Assembly: GCA_965247455.1 (NCBI GenBank)
Contig: CBDFHE010000016.1
Span: 79,101-143,100 of the forward strand
Origin: Candidatus Acidiferrales bacterium
Lineage (GTDB): Bacteria; Acidobacteriota; Terriglobia; Acidiferrales; 2-02-FULL-67-57
Length of the DNA: 64,000 bases
Direction: 5' to 3'
Below the pieces are notes generated by a model that did no database searches, was not told the origin of the DNA, and saw nothing but the letters and a program-made list of their open reading frames with translations. A program made the position numbers and the translations under genes. Below are positions 2,174-62,147 of this stretch, piece by piece; within the stretch, counting starts at the first letter, position 1; every line of letters starts with the position of its first letter.

Positions 2174-2194
2174 GCCTGCCTACCGCAGGCAGGC
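2174..2194. repeat. Micro-element copy (GC + CTGCCTACCGCAGGCAG + GC) in a GCTTCGCTCGGAATGACA repeat
   Basis: 17-bp core at 2176-2192 between GC dinucleotides; related copies at 3670, 20697, 20845 and 26187. Confidence 0.85.
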
Positions 2195-2771: not shown

Positions 2772-2801
2772 GGTGCCAAGCACCTCTTCCAAACTGACTT
2801 T
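2772..2801 (-). repeat. Repeat family R5 (AGTTTGGAAGAGGTGC-NNN-GCACCCGC), empty copy
   Basis: Related copies at 26167-26224, 49572-49617 and 57762-57787. Confidence 0.75.
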
Positions 2802-3437: not shown

Positions 3438-3502
3438 AAGAAAAGAAAATGAATACCTAGCGGGAAGTTGAATTTGGCGAGGCGGATGCCCCCCGTGCTT
3501 GG

Positions 3503-3586
3503 GTGGCGCGGACATTCCTGTCTGCGCAGTGCTGGAGTGGCAGACCCGGGCCAGAGGCGGATGGCAGGCAAGAATGTCTGCCTCAC
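3503..3586. repeat. REP-like doublet (family R1, GTGG/GTAG + GCAGACATTCYTGTCTGC hairpin)
   Basis: Inverted copies at 3503-3527 and 3564-3586. Other pairs at 27386-27451, 33989-34077 and 54994-55059. Confidence 0.85.
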
Positions 3587-3660
3587 TGAGTTGAGAACTT
3601 CCTTGGGGGTATCCGTAGGGGCAAATCTTGTACTTCTTCCGGGAGGCGCGTCACAAAAAT

Positions 3661-3705
3661 AGATTCCTCGCTTGCCTACCGCAGGCAGGCTGCGCTCGGA
3701 ATGAC
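3661..3705. repeat. AGATTCCTCGCTGCGCTCGGAATGAC repeat (family R3) interrupted by the 17-bp micro-element
   Basis: GC(3670-3671) + TTGCCTACCGCAGGCAG + GC(3689-3690). An uninterrupted relative lies at 52646-52673. Confidence 0.8.
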
Positions 3706-4166: not shown

Positions 4167-4853
4167 GTGTCACGCCAGCAGTCATCCACCGACGCTGACT
4201 GGCAAAACGTGCAGCGGCGAAGAGGAGTACGAATCGTCCTGTCCCTACCTGTGAAGGTGGCCTGGGTCACCAAGGAGGGCAAGCGCGTTTCCCGACATGC
4301 TGAAACCGAGGTTGTCAGCGCGTACGGTGCCACGCTCTGGATGAAGACCCCGCCACCGACCTCCACCGAGGTTGAGTTGACGCACGGGCGCACGCGCAAG
4401 TCGGTACGCGCGCGGGTGCTGAGGGCCCATCCACCCGAGAAGAATCAAACGCCGCAAATTGCGGTGGAACTCAAGGCTCCCAGCGAATCTTTTTGGGGGC
4501 CGAACTACCAGCTCCAGAAAGCCGGCTTGGAATTGCGCCAACTGGAGCTCGCCATTCCAGCAGAGGATATTGATGCGCGGGTGCTGGATGAATTCCGCCG
4601 GGCGGTGGACTACGTCCGGCAAGCGTCTTGGGCGATGCACCAGTGGATAGAGTTGCAGGCAAAAGGGCACGACCCCTACGGCATACTTTCTGTGCTGGCG
4701 ACTGAGCGCGTGAAACGGCTCACTCAGCTCACCGGCAACTTGTCATTAGACCTGGATGCCGCCGAAGTGAGCTTTGAGACCGCAGGGCTGATGGAGCTGG
4801 CTCAGGCGGTCGCCGGATTGCACAGACGTTTGACCCGCCTATTGAAGAAATAA
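4167..4853 (+). CDS. PilZ-domain protein with C-terminal helical extension
   Basis: QRRRGVRIVLSLPV (RxxxR) and EVVSAYGA (D/NxSxxG-like), followed by a beta-barrel-like segment. Confidence 0.7.
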   Translation: MSRQQSSTDADWQNVQRRRGVRIVLSLPVKVAWVTKEGKRVSRHAETEVVSAYGATLWMKTPPPTSTEVELTHGRTRKSVRARVLRAHPPEKNQTPQIAVELKAPSESFWGPNYQLQKAGLELRQLELAIPAEDIDARVLDEFRRAVDYVRQASWAMHQWIELQAKGHDPYGILSVLATERVKRLTQLTGNLSLDLDAAEVSFETAGLMELAQAVAGLHRRLTRLLKK

Positions 4854-10937: not shown

Positions 10938-12607
10938 CCGGGATTTCCGTTTTGCCTGCCCCTGATGGCACGTTTATACACCCGATCGCCGCCGATCGCA
11001 CAAAAACTTCGATCGTCGCACAATCGCTCAGCTTCAAAGGCCTTCATCTGAGCCCGCGCCGACGTGCGACCGACTGGAACCCCTGCTTTTCGGGCATTTC
11101 TCAGACACCGCTCCACACGTGTGCCCCGTGTCATCGCCGGGCGGGCTTCGTTGCACTTCAGGCCGCGCGTCAGCCTGCCGGCACGGGTAGCGCCCAGATC
11201 CTCCGCAGCATGTCGCCGAACAGCCGCCGCGTGAGATGCCCTTCCGCCAGCAGAAGCCAGTAGTACCGCGCATGCTTCACCAGCCGGCCCCCAGTTTTCA
11301 CCAGTCGCTGCTGGAGACTCGTGAGCGACCAGCGCTTGACCCGCAGCGGAAGGACCAGTCTGCGCCACAAGTTGCCCAGATTGTAGGCCAGGACGCTCAG
11401 TTGCAGGCGCACCTCGTTCGCCCGGAAACGATGGCACGACAGCCGCGTCCAGTGGGTGGCCTGCTTGCCTTCCTTGATCCATTGCTCCGCCGTACCGCGC
11501 TTGTTGTAAAACCGCACGACCGAGCGGCTCGGGAGGGCCATGTTGGTCACGATGAAGCCGACGCGAGGGAACAGCTCACCTTGGTGGTGCTCCACCTTGG
11601 CGACGATCCGTCTGGGCGTGGTCCAGCTCTTGGCCTGATAGCGGAAACTCTGGTAGCGCACCAAGGGCTTGCAGCTCGGCCGTCCCGGCGGACGAAAGAG
11701 GATGTCTTCGATTTCCAGCTCCAAGCTCTTGTTCGCCGGCATGCGAATGGCATAGTCCACGTCGCGCTGCTCGAGCGCGTCGTAGATCTCGGGCTTCGCG
11801 AACGCGGCGTCTGCGCGGAACGCTACGCGCTTGCCCTCCACCTGCTGCCGGTCAATCTCCGGTACGAGCAGGTCGTCCCAGTCGTCGGCGCTATGCACGT
11901 TGCCTGGCCGCAGCGTGGCGGCGAGGCAGTCCCCATGCTCGGTGAACAGAAACAGCGGGTGGTAGCAGACGGACTCGAAGTGCCCGTTATAGGCGCTCCC
12001 TTCCTGCGCCCCATGCACCGGGCTCTCGCTCGAATCCATGTCGAGCACGATCCGGTCGGCGCGCGTCGCCATCTCGGCCTGTGCAAGCACCTCCCGGTTC
12101 ACGGCCCTCAACCCGACGAGATTCTCCTCGTGGGTCAGCAGCTCTGTCTCGAACCAATGCAGCGTCGATGTCAGCGCCGCACCCCGGTCCCAGCGCTTTG
12201 GCGACCCGATGAGACGAAATGTTGGGTCTGCCGACACGCGCCCCGCGTCGTTGAGATCTTCGTAGCCCGCGAGGCGACTGTAGACCGACTGCCGCAGGAG
12301 ATCCACCACGCTGAACTGGGTGTTCATCCCCTGTCGGGAATCGCTCAGGTGCTCGGCGATGAGTGTCTCCAGCCCCAGACGTTCATCCAACTCGCGCACC
12401 AGAATGAGGCCAGCGTCAGAAGTGACGCGCGATCCCTGGAACGCGACTTTCAAGAAGCCGTTGAACGCGAACTGGAATGGCTCGTGTTGTAATTCACCCA
12501 CCGGGTGTCACCCTCCGTAGTGTGGTTCCTTACGTCGGAGCCCCAAAACTCAAGGCGCAGCGACTGGTCCTGGCGATACGGTACCACAGCCAAATCGGAA
12601 ATCCGGG
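10938..12607 (-). mobile_element. IS1380-family insertion sequence, 1670 bp
   Basis: Terminal inverted repeats 15/17 identical (CCGGGATTTCCGTTTTG / CCCGGATTTCCGATTTG), with a 5-bp target duplication CTTAG at 10933-10937 and 12608-12612. Confidence 0.92.
11170..12501 (-). CDS. IS1380-family DDE transposase
   Basis: TSDAGL, LAGYEDLNDA, LDMDSS..PVHG.QEG, FRADAAF and YNKRGTAEQWIKEGK. Confidence 0.92.
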   Translation of the reverse strand: MGELQHEPFQFAFNGFLKVAFQGSRVTSDAGLILVRELDERLGLETLIAEHLSDSRQGMNTQFSVVDLLRQSVYSRLAGYEDLNDAGRVSADPTFRLIGSPKRWDRGAALTSTLHWFETELLTHEENLVGLRAVNREVLAQAEMATRADRIVLDMDSSESPVHGAQEGSAYNGHFESVCYHPLFLFTEHGDCLAATLRPGNVHSADDWDDLLVPEIDRQQVEGKRVAFRADAAFAKPEIYDALEQRDVDYAIRMPANKSLELEIEDILFRPPGRPSCKPLVRYQSFRYQAKSWTTPRRIVAKVEHHQGELFPRVGFIVTNMALPSRSVVRFYNKRGTAEQWIKEGKQATHWTRLSCHRFRANEVRLQLSVLAYNLGNLWRRLVLPLRVKRWSLTSLQQRLVKTGGRLVKHARYYWLLLAEGHLTRRLFGDMLRRIWALPVPAG

Positions 12608-20666: not shown

Positions 20667-20696
20667 GCTGGAGAAAGCGCCAGGAAAACCTCGGGG

Positions 20697-20717
20697 GCCT
20701 GTCTGCCGCAGGCAGGC
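20697..20717. repeat. Micro-element copy inserted into a GGGC-TAAA-GCCC hairpin
   Basis: GC + CTGTCTGCCGCAGGCAG + GC; removing it restores GGGGGCTAAAGCCC. Confidence 0.75.
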
Positions 20718-20801
20718 TAAAGCCCTGTTGTTCTTGCCGGGCGGATTGGCTGGTACGGCTCTTGACGCGAACCAGCTTCGCCAAGATCAGTGTCAACTGG
20801 A

Positions 20802-20883
20802 GGTTCAGCCCAGCGGCTTCCGCCGCTGGGTCCCACGGGCCGAAGCCTGCCTGCGGCAAGCAGGCCCGTGGGCTGAACATCGG
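20802..20883. repeat. 63-bp double-hairpin repeat (family R4) carrying a 19-bp micro-element insertion
   Basis: 62/63 identical to the reverse complement of 33807-33869 once 20847-20865 is removed. Confidence 0.9.
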
Positions 20884-20920
20884 CCCAGGATGGGCTACTA
20901 CTCAAAGGCTGTGGGTTTCC

Positions 20921-22144
20921 CTACTCGTAGCGGAGGGCTTCGATGGGGTCGAGGCGCGCGGCCTTGTGAGCGGGATAGTAGCCGAAGAAGATTCCTATGG
21001 TGGCTGAGAACAGCACCGCCACCACCACGGCTCGCGTGGAGATCAGCACTGGCCAGCCCAGAAAGCCTGAAATCAGGCCGGAGGCGCCCGCGCCCAGCAT
21101 GATGCCCAGCGTACCTCCCAACAGCGCCAACGTCACGGCTTCCACCAGGAACTGTCGGCGGATGTCCATTTCGGTGGCGCCGACCGCCATGCGGACGCCG
21201 ATCTCGCGCGTGCGCTCGGTCACCGACACCAGCATGATGTTCATGATGCCGATGCCGCCTACCAGCAAGGAAATCGAGGCGATGCTGCCCAGCAGCATGG
21301 TCATCACCTGGCTGGTCTGCTCGGCTAGCTCGGCGAACTCAAACTGGGTGCGCACCTGGAAATCGTCTTCGGCGCCGGGCCCAATGCGGTGCCGCTCGCG
21401 CAACACCGCTTCGATCTGGGCCTGCGCCGCCAGCGAGGCTTCCCGGCTGACCGCGGTGCAGGAGAGAAACTGCACCCAGTCCTGCCCGGAGATTTTCTTT
21501 TGCAAGGTGGTGTAGGGCATGAAGACGCGGTCGTCCTGATCGTTGCCCCAAGAGGTCTGTCCCTTGGGCGCCATCACTCCAATGACTTGAAAGGGCTGTT
21601 CCTTGATGCGGATGGTCTGGCCGAGTGGGTCCTCGTCGGGGAACAAGATGTTGGCCACGGTCGTGCCCAGCACCGCCACGTTCTGGGCCGAGCGCACCTC
21701 CTCGTCGCCGAACGGGGTGCCGGCCAGCAAAGGCCAGTCGCGCACAGTGAAATAGTTCTCGGTGGTTCCCATCAGGCGGGTGAACCAGTTCTGGTTGCGG
21801 AAGATGACTTGGCCGCTGCTATTGGTTCCGGGGGCGCATTTGGTGATCAGCGGGACTTCCCGCTCGATGGCCCTCATGTCGGCGATCTTTAGAGTCTTGA
21901 CCGAGCCGAAGCCGTGCCGAACGCCTCTCCGGCGCCGCGAGGGGCTGCCGGCGGAGACGAAGACGGTGTTGGTGCCGAAGCTCTTGATCTGCTCCTGCAC
22001 CTGATTTTCCGCGCCCTGCCCCACCGCCACCATGGCGATCACAGCCGAGACACCGATGACGATGCCCAGCATGGTCAGCGTGGAGCGCATCTTGTTGCGG
22101 GCCAGCGCCCGCAAAGCAATACGAAACACCATCCCTAAGTCCAT
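20921..22144 (-). CDS. MacB-type ABC transporter permease (FtsX domain)
   Basis: NKMRSTLTMLGIVIGV, VGGIGIMNIMLVSVTERTREIGVRMAVGA and PIEALRYE. Confidence 0.92.
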   Translation of the reverse strand: MDLGMVFRIALRALARNKMRSTLTMLGIVIGVSAVIAMVAVGQGAENQVQEQIKSFGTNTVFVSAGSPSRRRRGVRHGFGSVKTLKIADMRAIEREVPLITKCAPGTNSSGQVIFRNQNWFTRLMGTTENYFTVRDWPLLAGTPFGDEEVRSAQNVAVLGTTVANILFPDEDPLGQTIRIKEQPFQVIGVMAPKGQTSWGNDQDDRVFMPYTTLQKKISGQDWVQFLSCTAVSREASLAAQAQIEAVLRERHRIGPGAEDDFQVRTQFEFAELAEQTSQVMTMLLGSIASISLLVGGIGIMNIMLVSVTERTREIGVRMAVGATEMDIRRQFLVEAVTLALLGGTLGIMLGAGASGLISGFLGWPVLISTRAVVVAVLFSATIGIFFGYYPAHKAARLDPIEALRYE

Positions 22145-26166: not shown

Positions 26167-26224
26167 AAAGTCGGTTTGGAAGAGGTGCCTGTCTGCCCTG
26201 CCTACCGCAGGCAGGCTCTGCACC
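26167..26224 (+). repeat. R5 repeat with a 28-bp compound micro-element insertion
   Basis: Removing 26189-26216 gives 27/30 identity to the reverse complement of 2772-2801. Confidence 0.8.
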
Positions 26225-26227
26225 CGC

Positions 26228-27316
26228 CTAGTGTACTGTCCCGGAAATATATGAGCAAAGTCGTTCGACCTTAGCGAGGATGGATTCGGCCGTGGCGGTC
26301 CAGACGAAAGGACTGGTGTTGGCGTTGTAATGTTCGACGAAGCGCTCGATGTTACGGACGAGAGCCTTGACGCTGGAGAAGGAACCTCGGCGAATGGCCT
26401 TCTGGGTAATGATGCCGAACCAGCGTTCGACTTGGTTGAGCCAGGACGCATAGGTTGGGGTGAAATGAACGTGGTAGCGGGGACGCCGAGCGAGCCAAGC
26501 GCGGACTTTGGGATGTTTGTGAGCAGCGTAGTTATCGACGATGAGATGGACGTCGAGGTTGTGCGGCACACTGCCGTCGATCTGACGCAGGAAAGTGAGG
26601 AACTCCTGATGACGGTGTCGCGGTTTACAGCGGGTGATGACTCTCCCGGTGGCCACATCGAGAGCCGCGAACAGAGTGGTCGTGCCGTGACGTTTGTAAT
26701 CATGGGTGACGCCTTCGACGTAGCCGAGGCCCATGGGGAGAACGGGCTGAGTTCGCTGAAGAGCTTGAACCTGGGTCTTCTCATCGACCGAGAGCACCAC
26801 GGCGTGGTCCGGGGGATTGAGGTAGAGACCGACGATGTCGCGGACTTTCTCGACGAAGAACGGGTCGTTGGAAATCTTGAAATGCCGCTGGCGATGCGGC
26901 TGGACGCCGAACAGATCGAACCACCGCTGGACCGTGCTCTTTGAGACTCCCGTGTGTTCCGCCATGGAACGCACGCTCCAGTGCGAACGATCGGGAGGTT
27001 CGGTTTGCAGGGCCGTGTTGATGACTTCCGCAACACGTTCATCCTCATGCGTGCGGGGGCGTCCGGGACGCAGTTCATCGTGTAGTCCGGGGATTCCATG
27101 TTCACGATAGCGCTTTCGCCACTTGCCCACGGTCGTATTGGTGACACCCAGACGCCGGGCCACGGTAGAGCCGGGAACGCCTTCGGCGCAGGCCAGCACA
27201 ATCTGGGCCCTCAGCACCAGACTATGCGGCAAGGTTCGGGAGCGGGCGAGGCTCCCCAGTTCCGATTCCTCACTCTCACTGAGAGTGAGGGGAGTAACGG
27301 GGCGACCGCGTGGCAT
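26228..27316 (-). CDS. IS630-family transposase
   Basis: HTH, RPGRP, WSVRSMA, VDEKTQVQAL, YKRHGTTTLFAAL, DNYAAHK and PTYASWLNQVERWF. The stop codon is formed by the target TAG. Confidence 0.93.
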   Translation of the reverse strand: MPRGRPVTPLTLSESEESELGSLARSRTLPHSLVLRAQIVLACAEGVPGSTVARRLGVTNTTVGKWRKRYREHGIPGLHDELRPGRPRTHEDERVAEVINTALQTEPPDRSHWSVRSMAEHTGVSKSTVQRWFDLFGVQPHRQRHFKISNDPFFVEKVRDIVGLYLNPPDHAVVLSVDEKTQVQALQRTQPVLPMGLGYVEGVTHDYKRHGTTTLFAALDVATGRVITRCKPRHRHQEFLTFLRQIDGSVPHNLDVHLIVDNYAAHKHPKVRAWLARRPRYHVHFTPTYASWLNQVERWFGIITQKAIRRGSFSSVKALVRNIERFVEHYNANTSPFVWTATAESILAKVERLCSYISGTVH

Positions 27317-27379
27317 GGGCATACCTCCAGAGGCCAAAGGTTGCCCATTAATATATCGCTTATTTCCGGGACAGTACAC
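26231..27379 (-). mobile_element. IS630-family insertion sequence, 1149 bp
   Basis: Perfect 19-bp terminal inverted repeats GTGTACTGTCCCGGAAATA; TA duplication within CTAG at both ends. Confidence 0.93.
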
Positions 27380-27385
27380 TAGGTC

Positions 27386-27451
27386 GCAGACAAGAATGTC
27401 TGCGCTACCAAGTTCACATCAAACCCAGTGGGGCGGACATTCCTGTCCGCC
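27386..27451. repeat. REP-like doublet (family R1)
   Basis: GCAGACAAGAATGTCTGCGCTAC and GTGGGGCGGACATTCCTGTCCGCC. Confidence 0.85.
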
Positions 27452-33806: not shown

Positions 33807-33869
33807 CCGATGTTCAGCCCACGGGCTTCCGCCCGTGGGACCCAGCGGCGGAAGCCGCTGGGCTGAACC
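33807..33869. repeat. 63-bp double-hairpin repeat (family R4), empty copy
   Basis: Reverse-complement match to 20802-20883. Confidence 0.9.
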
Positions 33870-33988: not shown

Positions 33989-34077
33989 GTGGCGCAGACA
34001 TTCTTGTCTGCGCGGGGTTGGCGAGGCGGACCCGCCCGTGCCCTGCGGGCTACGGCAGGCAGGAATGCCTGCCCCAC
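33989..34077. repeat. REP-like doublet (family R1)
   Basis: GTGGCGCAGACATTCTTGTCTGCGC and GCAGGCAGGAATGCCTGCCCCAC. Confidence 0.85.
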
Positions 34078-34104
34078 CCAATTCTTGAGAGAACCTCCCC
34101 TGGC

Positions 34105-52645: not shown

Positions 52646-52673
52646 TGTCATCCCGAGCGAAGTCGAGGGATCT
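52646..52673. repeat. TGTCATCCCGAGCGAAGTCGAGGGATCT repeat (family R3), uninterrupted
   Basis: Reverse-complement relative of the reconstructed hosts at 2193-2210 and 3661-3705. Confidence 0.75.
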
Positions 52674-54052: not shown

Positions 54053-55021
54053 ATGCCCTTCCGCGTCTGCCGTTCTTTGGACGAATTGCCCGCCCCGCTG
54101 CCGCACTTGGTGTTGGGCATCGGCAACTTTGACGGCATACACCGCGGCCACCAGCGCATTTTCCGGCATGTGGTACGCGAGGCCCGGGCACGGAACGGCA
54201 CGGCGGCGGCTCTGACCTTCGACCCGCATCCCAGCCGGGTGCTGGCTCCGGCCTCCGCTCCGCCCTTGCTGATAACGCTGGCGCAGAAGCTCAGCCTGCT
54301 GGAAGCGGCGGGGATTGAATTGGTATTGGTCCTCCCGTTTACTCGCGCGTTGGCGCAGCTTTCGCCGCCGGAGTTTGTGCGCGAGATTGTCCATCGGCGG
54401 CTGGCGGCCGAGGTTGTCTTGGTGGGATCGAACTTCCGCTTTGGGCGCGGCCGCGCCGGGAACGTGCAGGTGCTGGGCAAGCTGGCGCGTGAGTTCGGCT
54501 TTGCGCAAAAAATCGTTCTTCCGGTGAAGGTGGGTGGGCAGACGGTTTCCAGCAGCTTGATTCGTCGCCTGGTGGCCGATGGGCGCATCGACCGCGCCGC
54601 CCGCTTGCTGGGGCGTCCCTTTGCCGTCACCGGCGCCGTTCAGCCGGGAGCGCGGCGGGGCGCGCCCCTGGGTTTCCCAACCTTGAACCTGCTCCCGGAG
54701 CAGGAGTGCCTGCCGGCGCGCGGGGTGTACATCACCGAGACCTTGCTGGAAGGGGAAGCCTATCCCTCCGCCACCAACGTGGGCGTTCGCCCCACCTTCG
54801 GCGATCAGCGCCTGGTGGTGGAGTCGCACCTGTTGGATTTCAACCGCACCGTCGCCGAGGGCCGGCTGGAAGTGCGCTTCCATCACCGCCTGCGCAAGGA
54901 GAAGAAGTTTCGCTCGCCCCAGGCCCTGCGGGCACAGATTGCGCGCGACGTGGAACGGACCCACCGTTATTTCCAGCAGCGCACCCGCCCGCTGCGCAGG
55001 CAGGAATGCCTGCGCCACTGA
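54053..55021 (+). CDS. ribF: Bifunctional riboflavin kinase / FAD synthetase
   Basis: GNFDGIHRGH, TFDPHP, SSSLIR, LGFPTLN, NVGVRPTF and VESHLLDF. Confidence 0.95.
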   Translation: MPFRVCRSLDELPAPLPHLVLGIGNFDGIHRGHQRIFRHVVREARARNGTAAALTFDPHPSRVLAPASAPPLLITLAQKLSLLEAAGIELVLVLPFTRALAQLSPPEFVREIVHRRLAAEVVLVGSNFRFGRGRAGNVQVLGKLAREFGFAQKIVLPVKVGGQTVSSSLIRRLVADGRIDRAARLLGRPFAVTGAVQPGARRGAPLGFPTLNLLPEQECLPARGVYITETLLEGEAYPSATNVGVRPTFGDQRLVVESHLLDFNRTVAEGRLEVRFHHRLRKEKKFRSPQALRAQIARDVERTHRYFQQRTRPLRRQECLRH

Positions 55022-55059
55022 ATTGCTCTTTCCCGGTGGGGCAGACATTCTTGTCTGCC
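54994..55059. repeat. REP-like doublet (family R1); the left copy lies inside the ribF 3' end
   Basis: GCGCAGGCAGGAATGCCTGCGCCAC (54994-55018) and GTGGGGCAGACATTCTTGTCTGCC (55036-55059). Confidence 0.85.
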
Positions 55060-57761: not shown

Positions 57762-57787
57762 GCGGGTGCTGAGCACCTCTTCCGGAC
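57762..57787 (-). repeat. R5 repeat, empty copy (GGTGC-TGA-GCACCTCTTCC)
   Basis: GCGGGTGCTGAGCACCTCTTCCGGACT matches the R5 core. Confidence 0.65.
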
Positions 57788-57857
57788 TAACGGAATTGTT
57801 TGCTGCGAATGGGGTCCTTCGGCTGCGCTCTGCAACTTATGGGCGCGCCGAACCGGC

Positions 57858-60637: not shown

Positions 60638-60667
60638 ACTCTATCGTCTGCCACGTGAATCAGTCAA
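60638..60667 (-). promoter_or_regulatory. Candidate sigma70 promoter for the TonB-dependent receptor
   Basis: TTGACT (60667-60662), 18-bp spacer, TAGAGT (60643-60638). Confidence 0.55.
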
Positions 60668-60714
60668 GAGTGGAGAGAATTTTCTGTTGCAGGCTGGTTG
60701 CAACTAGTTGCAAC
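60668..60714 (+). repeat. 47-bp direct repeat, left copy, abutting the IS left end
   Basis: 45/47 identical to 62101-62147; contains the perfect 18-bp palindrome GTTGCAACTAGTTGCAAC. Confidence 0.92.
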
Positions 60715-62100
60715 TGTAGCTGCAAAGTGAGAATGTCCTATTTGCGCAAAGTAGGAATGTCCTCTTTCATCAGGGCCAGGAGGGACGATGAGAGAGGAGC
60801 GAATCGAATTGAGCCAACGGGAGCAGGATTGGTTGAAGGTACTCCACCAAGTCGAGCAGGGCTATCTGACCCAGGTGGAAGCGGGCCGGCGGGTGCAGGT
60901 GAGCGTACGCCACCTGCGGCGTCTGCTGAGACGGGTGCGGGCGGAGGGGGACAGGGGCGTAGTGCATCGGCTGCGGGGGCGGCCCTCGAACCGGAAGATT
61001 CCAGCGGCCCTCCAGGGGCGCATCCTGGCCCAGGTGCGGCGGCGCTACGCCGACTTTGGGCCCACGCTGGCCAGCGAGCACCTGGCGCGAGATGGGTGGC
61101 AGGTCAGCCGGGAGACGCTGCGGCAGTGGATGACCGCCGCCGGGCTGTGGCGGTCGCGCCGGCAGCGGAGGCCGGCGGTGCACGTCTGGCGAGAGCGGCG
61201 GGCCGCCTTCGGCGAGTTGGTGATGATGGACAGCTCGCCCTATCGCTGGTTGGAGCGGCGCGGACCTCCCGTGCAGTTGATCGCGCTGATCGACGACGCT
61301 ACCAGCCGGGTCTGGGGCCGCTTCGCCGCCCAGGACTCGACCGAGGAAAACCTGCGCACCCTGGCAGGCTGGCTCCGGCGCTGGGGACGGCCGCGGGCAC
61401 TCTATACCGACAAAAGCAGCCTGTTCCGCACCACCCGCTCGGCCCGGCTCGACGAGCAGCTCGGCGGTCAGCCGGCCCGCACCCAGATCGGGCGGGCCCT
61501 GCAGGAGTTGGGGATCGAGTGGATTCCCGCCCACAGCCCCCAGGCCAAGGGGCGCATCGAGAGACTATTCGGCACCTTGCAGGACCGCCTGGTCAAGGAG
61601 ATGCGCCTGACCGGGGTGCACACGGTGGAGCAGGCCAACCGCTTCCTGGCAGCAGTCTTCCTGCCTTTCTGGGAGCAGCGCTTCACCGTCGCTCCGCGCC
61701 AGCCGCACGATGCCCACCGCCCGCTGGGAGGCACCCAGCGGCTGGAGTCAATCCTGAGCGTGCGCGAACCGCGCCGGGTGGCAGGCGACTACACCGTGCG
61801 CTGGCAGGGCCAGCGCTGGGCGATCCCGCGCGCCCAGGTGCGAGCGGGGTTGCGGGGGGCGCGGGTGGAGGTCGAACGGCGGCTCGACGGCAGCCGCTGG
61901 GTCCGCTTCCGCGGCTCTTATCTCAGCCTGCGGCCCTGCCCGAGCCCGCCGCCCGCGCCCGCAACCCCCTTCGGCCTACGGCCTACGGGGCTTGCGGGCC
62001 CAAGGAAAGGCAAACGAAAGTACATTCTCCCTCCCGATCACCCTTGGAGGAGGACATTTCTATCTGGCAAAAAACCGGACATTTCTACTTTGCGTTGACA
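60715..62100 (+). mobile_element. IS1202-group (ISNCY) insertion sequence, 1386 bp
   Basis: TGT...ACA ends; imperfect inverted repeats with two internal (A/G)AATGTCC / GGACATTT boxes at each end. Confidence 0.88.
60788..62098 (+). CDS. IS1202/ISNCY-type DDE transposase (integrase-core fold)
   Basis: HTH, YADFGPTLASEHL, GELVMMDSS, IDDATSR, YTDK, SPQAKGRIERLFGTLQDRL and C-terminal PDHPWR. Confidence 0.9.
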   Translation: MREERIELSQREQDWLKVLHQVEQGYLTQVEAGRRVQVSVRHLRRLLRRVRAEGDRGVVHRLRGRPSNRKIPAALQGRILAQVRRRYADFGPTLASEHLARDGWQVSRETLRQWMTAAGLWRSRRQRRPAVHVWRERRAAFGELVMMDSSPYRWLERRGPPVQLIALIDDATSRVWGRFAAQDSTEENLRTLAGWLRRWGRPRALYTDKSSLFRTTRSARLDEQLGGQPARTQIGRALQELGIEWIPAHSPQAKGRIERLFGTLQDRLVKEMRLTGVHTVEQANRFLAAVFLPFWEQRFTVAPRQPHDAHRPLGGTQRLESILSVREPRRVAGDYTVRWQGQRWAIPRAQVRAGLRGARVEVERRLDGSRWVRFRGSYLSLRPCPSPPPAPATPFGLRPTGLAGPRKGKRKYILPPDHPWRRTFLSGKKPDISTLR

Positions 62101-62147
62101 GAGTGGAGAGAATTTTATGTTGCAAGCTGGTTGCAACTAGTTGCAAC
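62101..62147 (+). repeat. 47-bp direct repeat, right copy, abutting the IS right end
   Basis: 45/47 identical to 60668-60714. Confidence 0.92.

Follow-up and report, generated by a model that had tools for sequence, protein, structure and literature searches.

The window analyzed here, a 64,000-nt stretch of contig CBDFHE010000016.1 from a Candidatus Acidiferrales bacterium (Acidobacteriota), carries five copies of a 19-nt hairpin, 5'-CCTGCCT-RCCGC-AGGCAGG-3' (register CCTGCCTRCCGCAGGCAGG), all of them intergenic. Based on matched filled and empty sites in seven genomes and on the flanks of 130 hits, this 19-mer is very likely a discrete insertion element with near-identical copies and sharp ends, which sits flush in its targets. 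Few insertion elements seen so far are as small or as widely shared; it is unusual in that 19 nt make up the entire unit and that one sequence is found in at least 13 phyla. We further suggest that it could be mobilized as single-stranded DNA (ssDNA) by an HUH-type enzyme, and we put the chance that the whole statement, insertion element and mobilization together, is right at slightly below even.

The inserted unit and its ends

The 17-nt core of the element, YTGYYTRCCGCAGGCAG, has five matches in the window, as against 0.00 expected from 100 dinucleotide-preserving shuffles. Allowing up to three mismatches adds a single match (34046-34062), which lies inside a doublet of repetitive extragenic palindromic (REP) sequences at 33989-34083, a separate repeat family. 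Two loop variants of the 19-mer co-exist, with either A or G at base 8, and the G form reads (CCTG)2-CCG-(CAGG)2. As ssDNA, the 19-mer is predicted to form a stem of 7-8 bp with a loop of 3-5 nt (-6.8 to -8.0 kcal/mol, z about -3). No Rfam family matched in the window, and a literature search by sequence with the exact element sequences gave no match.

A first-pass annotation of the window had proposed a very small mobile unit on the basis of paired filled and empty sites, and its description as a discrete, non-coding insert stands. The cores that it placed at 2176-2192, 3672-3688, and 20699-20715 on the forward strand and at 20847-20863 on the reverse strand were all recovered, the fifth lies at 26198-26214 on the forward strand, and all five are flanked by GC dinucleotides. 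Its comparison of 20802-20883 with the reverse complement of 33807-33869 likewise gave one mismatch and exactly 19 extra bp, and the compound form that it noted at 26189-26214 proved to be a 9-nt left half followed by a full copy, together spanning 26188-26215. However, the unit had been described as a 17-bp core plus a duplicated GC, which the eight filled/empty pairs and the 130-hit flanks replace with 19 nt and no duplication. As GC is its own reverse complement, these two descriptions are indistinguishable within the window, and we therefore turned to copies in other genomes.

Among the 130 hits with enough flanking sequence, drawn from the loci listed in a scan of GTDB genomes (described below) and from the window, C precedes the 17-mer in 78%, C is also its first base in 82%, and G follows it in 76%, while bases further outward are unconserved. 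The usual flanks are C...G; GC...GC flanks occur in only 15 of the 130 hits, five of which are from the window. We then deleted C+17+G from every copy and compared the joined flanks with all collected sequence. In eight filled/empty pairs from seven genomes (Table 1), deletion of exactly 19 nt produced an ungapped match across the junction, with no target duplication. Individual pairs allow some freedom of register (-1 or 0 for L018 and L064, -2 or -1 for L027), but only the C+17+G register fits all of them, indicating a 19-nt unit without a duplicated target base. The flank statistics and register analysis rule out a 2-bp GC target duplication, and an 18-nt core with a 1-bp duplication also fails, since L018 and L027 would need different cores. 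Positions outside the 19 nt carry at most 0.44 bit each, and left and right flank bases are mutually complementary in 16-27%, no more than chance. Conservation and palindrome thus both end sharply at the ends of the 19-mer.

The absence of a target duplication bears on whether the 19-mer could be a minimal miniature inverted-repeat transposable element (MITE), whose 7-8 bp arms would serve a DDE transposase as terminal inverted repeats. In favor of this, the two arms are perfect inverted copies of each other, and DDE insertion sequence (IS) elements are active in the lineage. However, DDE elements almost always make a target duplication, and none is present in the eight pairs; 19 bp is too short for two transposase-binding ends, where MITEs measure 50-500 bp, and the arms show no relation to the ends of the IS elements that the window contains. 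We find this origin scarcely credible.

Landing sites, nesting, and the loop-flank link

The 19-mer can insert into non-coding sequences that are unrelated to one another, into hairpin repeats of other kinds, and into the apical loop of a further copy. One hairpin family that often serves as host, GTCAT-stem-GAGCG(A/C)AGCGA-stem'-C, extends across phyla; it houses the window copies at 2175 and 3671, and its center bears many different small hairpins in different genomes. The host of the 3671 copy reads GTCATTCCGAGCGCAG^CGAGGAATC on the minus strand (^ marks the insertion point), and its exact empty form, AGATTCCTCGCTGCGCTCGGAATGAC, was found only in another genome (L006, 100% identical). Of two empty relatives proposed in the first-pass annotation, the one at 2772-2801 is indeed an empty paralogue of the host of the 26197 copy, whereas that at 52646-52673 shares only the broad GTCAT family with the hosts of the 2175 and 3671 copies and belongs to another subfamily. 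The GTCAT family contains a stable GCGAAGC/GCGCAGC mini-hairpin, and its members include window positions 3662-3705, 2194-2209, and 52646-52673 as well as sequences in L011, L020, L030, L032, L044, L071, L089, and L109. A literature search by sequence found no description of the family; 11-mers of the host hairpin matched only primers and unrelated uses.

The other window copies occupy different hosts. The 20698 copy lies 32 nt 3' of the SSB stop codon, and the 20846 copy lies in a repeat (20802-20883) composed of two 9-bp-stem hairpins within an outer stem, GTTCAGCC...GGCTGAAC. The compound at 26188-26215, with the adjoining CTCT (26216-26219), stands where its host hairpin, GGAAGAGGTGC-loop-GCACCCGCC, would have a loop of 3 nt. 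A second compound of a 9-nt left half plus a full copy, independent of the one in the window, is present in viral contig L145 (about 4183-4210). In both compounds the outer copy has no right half, and they may mark an aberrant insertion or excision event.

The 19-mer also nests in itself: a copy is found at the exact center of another copy in L044 and L077. In L109 and L119 the copy is again central, here within a closely related palindrome of the type (CCTG)n/(CAGG)n. In eight relatives (L122-L128 and L131; 94-96% identical), the orthologue of the 3671 copy contains an extra 18-nt hairpin, with core GCCCGCCACGGCGGGC, at the center of the 19-mer; this hairpin is missing at the 3671 site in the window and in L129. 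Successive nesting lengthens the composite hairpin and takes its predicted folding energy from -2.7 to -8.5 to -21.1 kcal/mol. The GCCCGCCACGGCGGGC hairpin, which was also observed within a CCTGCCT...AGGCAGG stem of an Omnitrophota metagenome-assembled genome (MAG; L049), may represent a second tiny mobile hairpin family.

Insertion points lie in a hairpin loop, or at most 1 nt from one, in 22% of 98 contexts, compared with 14-15% in shifted or random controls. We rejected strict hairpin-loop targeting on the basis of this weak enrichment, and the earlier suggestion that the element parasitizes other repeats holds in the window and for many copies but not as a rule. Two further landing sites deserve description. 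In L076, the 19-mer is in the T-stem of a duplicated tRNA-Asp 3' half (2700-2765 and 4583-4659), with the intact tRNA-Asp 1.8 kb away; this half is an att-like remnant of an integrated element. In L027, an Omnitrophota MAG, positions 760-1080 hold tandem 48-nt units, two of them empty and two with the 19-mer at the same position, in an array interrupted by an N-run.

The loop base of a copy and the base that follows the copy are linked. The next 3' base is C in 68% of A-type copies, while in G-type copies it is G in 46% and T in 29% (chi-square p = 4.6e-7; 4.9e-7 by Fisher's test with one site per locus). The 5' flank base also differs between the two types (p = 0.0014). Either there are two sub-families with different target preferences, or the loop base helps to choose the target. 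The 5' arm might also show C>T changes specific to one strand, but this was set aside, as too few unbiased copies were available to judge it.

Junction homology is limited to 0-1 nt, and about 100 independent contexts show the same two ends. These observations count against enzyme-free copying, in which a stalled fork or a repair polymerase would switch template to another copy, or gene conversion would act between repeats. Such copying would be in keeping with the location of some copies in hairpin-rich repeats, where forks stall, with the compound copies of the window and L145, which resemble products of aberrant copying, and with the frequency of one-base junction matches (G before the element in 55%, C after it in 39%). 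However, the hosts are unrelated in sequence, so gene conversion cannot transfer the element between them, and neither the identity across 13 phyla nor the co-variation of loop and target is explained. We regard enzyme-free copying as unlikely.

Relative to flanking genes, 14 copies lie in the same and 17 in the opposite orientation by a crude open reading frame (ORF) call. This lack of bias argues for a role at the level of DNA rather than RNA. Spread through RNA would require that the hairpin be transcribed, reverse-transcribed into a short complementary DNA (cDNA) hairpin, and integrated. Many copies do occur in transcribed 3' regions, and at least one reverse-transcriptase system, UG27, is described in a bioRxiv preprint as producing cDNA hairpins. 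However, there is no reverse transcriptase in the window and none recurs near the copies, orientation is unbiased with respect to transcription, and the junctions have no poly-A or other retro-type feature. As we also know of no integration route for a 19-nt cDNA, this path seems very unlikely.

Table 1. Copies of the 19-mer and related host sequences in the window, and filled/empty pairs
Feature	Position or locus	Strand	Remarks
19-mer, A-loop, CCTGCCTACCGCAGGCAGG	2175-2193	+	Right flank 2194-2209 is half-hairpin CTTCGCTCGGAATGAC of GTCAT host family
19-mer, A-loop, C2>T, CTTGCCTACCGCAGGCAGG	3671-3689	+	Inside GTCAT-hairpin repeat 3662-3705
19-mer, G-loop, C5>T, CCTGTCTGCCGCAGGCAGG	20698-20716	+	In small hairpin GGGGC-TAAA-GCCC
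19-mer, G-loop, C6>T, CCTGCTTGCCGCAGGCAGG	20846-20864	-	At loop edge, one arm of double-hairpin repeat
19-mer, A-loop, full copy of compound	26197-26215	+	
Compound form	26188-26215	+	9-nt left half CCTGTCTGC (26188-26196), then full copy
Filled REPIN-like double-hairpin repeat	20802-20883	+	-32.2 kcal/mol as ssDNA
Empty paralogue of double-hairpin repeat	33807-33869	-	1 mismatch, exactly 19 nt fewer; -29.3 kcal/mol, z -6.6
Empty paralogue of 26197-copy host, loop TTG	2772-2801	-	
Second empty paralogue of 26197-copy host, loop TCA	57762-57791	-	
Empty GTCAT-hairpin member, GTCATCCCGAGCGAAGTCGAGGGATC	52646-52673	+	Other subfamily than 3671 host
Filled/empty pair	Window 20846 vs 33807		Ungapped across junction
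Filled/empty pair	L027		100% over 72 nt
Filled/empty pair	L064 (isolate Galbibacter orientalis DSM 19592)		100% over 55 nt
Filled/empty pairs	L018, L050, L076, L107		Ungapped across junction
Filled/empty pair across genomes	GTCAT-hairpin host		

Distribution across bacteria and age in the lineage

With the 16-mer pattern TGYCTRCCGCAGGCAG, a scan in which each GTDB species was represented by a single genome identified at least 119 loci. The full 19-mer is present in 74 of the 119 loci listed; if the 16-mer pattern had been matched by chance, about 1 locus in 64 should contain it. According to record titles and NCBI taxonomy, the carriers among the loci listed span at least 13 phyla, a breadth absent from the first-pass account, and the G+C content of the scan loci listed ranges from 31 to 75%. 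Among these loci, about 18 carriers belong to Acidobacteriota and about 21 to Bacteroidota, the latter including three cultured isolates (Galbibacter, Algoriphagus, and Winogradskyella). Other carriers are found in Patescibacteria/candidate phyla radiation (CPR) lineages, Ignavibacteriota, Omnitrophota, Planctomycetota, Thermodesulfobacteriota and other "delta" MAGs, and further ones in Myxococcota, Chloroflexota, Pseudomonadota, Elusimicrobiota, Nitrospirota, and Actinomycetota. No cyanobacterial record is among the 74 carrier loci listed. A second copy within 8 kb occurs in eight of the 74 genome loci listed and in one viral contig (L145), in mixed orientation and spacing; copies are otherwise singletons and do not form inverted doublets.

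Most carrier records are MAGs, which might suggest an artefact of sequencing, assembly, or binning, or contamination. However, the same copies were found at the same sites in independent assemblies (ENA, NCBI, Logan, and JGI), the three cultured isolates carry the 19-mer, and copies adjoin lineage-typical genes, such as the ribosomal-protein operon next to the copy in L077. In our view the independent assemblies already refute this reading, and its probability is negligible.

The distribution is patchy. The full 19-mer also occurs in 13 IMG/VR viral contigs, and those inspected resemble fragments of Mu-like or tailed phages, not ssDNA phages. There are zero full copies in 7.3 Gb of plasmids, and zero copies in 744 kb of unselected metagenome loci of relatives, which were picked by their permease and not by the repeat. 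Given the plasmid result and the type of viral contig, we rejected plasmids and phages as vehicles. Since Patescibacteria and Bacteroidota of 31% GC and genomes of 75% GC have one and the same sequence, the 19-mer could serve as a tracer for horizontal transfer of non-coding DNA.

Within the lineage of the window, a 99.7%-identical strain (L120/L132) retains all three 19-mers of the region covered (20698, 20846, and 26197) and lacks two IS elements of the window, one IS1380-like (10938-12607) and one IS630-like (26230-27378). These IS elements are recently active mobile DNA in this lineage; by Pfam the first encodes DDE_Tnp_1_4 and the second DDE_3 with a helix-turn-helix (HTH) domain, and the IS630-like element landed 14 nt from the 26197 hairpin. 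The compound at 26188-26215 is common to the window, L120, and L229. Relatives of about 94% identity share the 3671, 20846, and 26197 copies, and the same CCTGCTTG variant of the 20846 copy is found at the orthologous site in L229/L230. In a syntenic relative with a 79%-identical permease, the SSB-permease spacer is 14 nt, the guaA-sigma spacer is 32 nt, and there are zero copies in 15 kb. The copies were thus gained between these two splits. From such alignments, the window copies appear to be old residents that are now decaying by point mutation and have not been recently active.

The surrounding sequence also varies among relatives. A segment at 1359-2249, which holds the 2175 copy and a putative MOSC-domain-like gene (1391-2044, recognized by eye), is variable: relatives have either 31 nt or a DinB_2 gene in its place. 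At about 3440-3503 there is a 63-nt presence/absence polymorphism that includes one REP, GCGCAGACAGGAATGTCCGCGCCAC (compared with L122, L125, L126, and L128; 94-96% identical). The spacers of L231 and L232 are not alignable.

The conservation of orthologous sites in relatives of about 94% identity, and the placement of a stable hairpin between genes, often at 3' ends, could also be expected if the 19-mer were not mobile but a selected functional palindrome, such as a protein-binding site, an mRNA stabilizer, or a terminator, with "empty" sites arising by deletion. However, the host families are mostly empty, and filled and empty sites differ by exactly 19 nt without flanking direct repeats to drive precise deletion. 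The hairpin has no T-run after it, orientation is unbiased, and copies nest in each other and in a dead tRNA half. That a GC-rich 19-mer keeps its exact sequence in genomes of 31% GC points to import rather than local selection. A selected, immobile palindrome is highly improbable.

Proposed mobilization and relation to known repeats

We propose that the 19-mer may be a non-autonomous element moved in trans as ssDNA. An enzyme would recognize the folded hairpin, cut at both stem feet, and "peel and paste" the element at replication forks, leaving no duplication. The most likely enzyme would be an HUH/Y1 single-strand transposase of the IS200/IS605-RAYT (REP-associated tyrosine transposase) kind; REP/RAYT-type enzymes cut and rejoin ssDNA at hairpins without duplication. 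The enzyme-hairpin pair could spread by horizontal transfer, and the link between loop base and target base would then mean that target choice depends in part on the element itself, as it does for IS200/IS605. An HUH-type mobilizer is suggested by the flush insertion, the hairpin that constitutes the whole element, landing in exposed loops of other copies, loop-target co-variation, and the resident REP doublets. We put it forward tentatively, thinking it clearly more apt to prove wrong than right, and judge each of the five alternatives discussed above to be less likely.

The window contains four canonical GTGG-tagged REP inverted doublets (REPINs), at 3503-3592, 27386-27450, 33989-34083, and 54996-55059. 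Based on their presence, the genome probably encodes a RAYT/Y1 enzyme elsewhere, which makes an HUH enzyme plausible. The REP of the window follows GTGG-GGCAGRCA-TTCY-TGYCTGCC, and its stems resemble the Anabaena cylindrica REPs listed for RAYT subclass 2.7. Its arms, GGCAGGCA/TGCCTGCC, resemble the 19-mer turned inside out, but the REP is absent from the other 74 carrier loci, and we rejected the 19-mer as a by-product of it. A degraded RAYT-like ORF was observed in a Chitinophagaceae MAG (L051, 1045-1890) between REP doublets CCGCTGTCGGGG.../CCCTGTCGGCGG, with a 19-mer 250 nt away. As the repeats that flank this ORF are its own unrelated REP doublets, it too was rejected as the mobilizer.

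A number of observations speak against mobilization of this kind. As stated in the first-pass annotation, the mobilizer is not in the window: there is no HUH/Y1 gene in the 64 kb, and the three transposases encoded there (IS1380-like, IS630-like, and rve-like) are all DDE types. No Y1 gene was found beside copies in about 0.9 Mb of loci searched with approximate query sequences, and no neighboring gene family recurs near the copies. The 19-mer lacks the GT[AG]G or CGTC foot tetranucleotide of REPs, the four 5' positions each carrying at most 0.44 bit. Each REP sequence is confined to its species and evolves together with its RAYT, while the 19-mer is identical across at least 13 phyla, and no repeat-flanked RAYT gene for it was found in the loci. 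The preference for targets is weak. Furthermore, relatives of about 94% identity already have all of the window copies for which a comparison was possible, while the IS elements differ even at 99.7%, and there is no clean orthologous filled/empty pair among the relatives checked. The metagenome scan for such sites gave relatives of at most 65% identity, and look-ups by permease, ABC ATPase, and ExbD yielded nothing usable.

Compared with known systems, the 19-mer is most like the small dispersed repeats of cyanobacteria and REPs, and it differs from REP/REPIN, MITE, and IS200/IS605-derived elements in the features that define each. With IS200/IS605 elements and palindrome-associated transposable elements (PATEs), it shares the lack of target duplication and, as inferred here, a hairpin as the recognized structure. 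The element IS608 takes part in target choice, which the loop-flank co-variation of the 19-mer echoes. However, those elements depend on two different subterminal hairpins together with tetranucleotides for guidance and cleavage, and their insertion point follows a constant target of 4-5 nt on its 3' side, while the 19-mer is a single hairpin with no fixed 5' flank motif and a weakly defined target. The GC-rich palindromes of organelles, namely the GC clusters of yeast mitochondria, the double-hairpin elements of Allomyces, and the organelle palindromes of Volvox, are similarly small and GC-rich, invade AT-rich non-coding DNA, and nest in one another. In contrast to the 19-mer, they belong to eukaryotic organelles, usually measure 30-60 nt or more, and have lineage-specific sequences.

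The 19-mer resembles REPs and REPINs in being a short, GC-rich, non-coding hairpin with many intergenic copies and no target duplication, but it is not organized as an inverted doublet. The commonest 5' 4-mer, CGAG (11 of 101), comes from one host family, and the GTAG inside A-type copies is at the loop position and is missing from G-type copies. The cyanobacterial small dispersed repeats SDR4-6, reportedly the subject of a 2008 study by Elhai et al., are reported to be near-identical, dispersed, non-coding sequences of 21-27 nt located in other repeats and considered mobile from their presence and absence; no mobilizer is known for them. The 19-mer is likewise tiny, near-identical, dispersed, non-coding, and nested in repeats, with filled/empty pairs. 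It differs from the SDRs in being 19 nt long, a near-perfect palindrome, and present in at least 13 phyla; the SDRs are reported only in Nostocaceae.

The usual view is that DNA can move only if it has a gene of its own or, failing that, two or more ends to which a protein binds. In the strongest form of the proposal, a single 19-nt hairpin would be a complete transposable unit, the smallest known, which a widely shared ssDNA enzyme excises and pastes flush into genomes across phyla, with one loop base helping to specify the landing base. We hold this form to be doubtful. With its exact ends and lack of duplication, a unit of 19 nt would set a lower bound on what a mobilizing enzyme needs, with a substrate as simple as one oligonucleotide. 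If the proposal is correct, repeated nesting at hairpin tips would be a general route by which composite intergenic hairpins, such as the GTCAT hairpins and REP-like repeats, grow, and the 19-mer offers a way to ask how both arise.

Hairpins of this type also break metagenome assemblies and create spurious ORFs. An 81-codon ORF (20762-21007) that crosses the filled repeat is probably spurious. Short-read contigs of relatives tend to stop at the edges of repeat-filled spacers (P0001/P0002, about 1.85 kb), and the L121 contig ends 12 nt past the SSB stop codon (window position 20678), just before the 20698 copy. Apart from these, 48-nt direct repeats (96% identical; 60667-60714 and 62100-62147) flank an rve_3/HTH transposase-like gene at 60788-62098 and probably delimit an IS-like unit.

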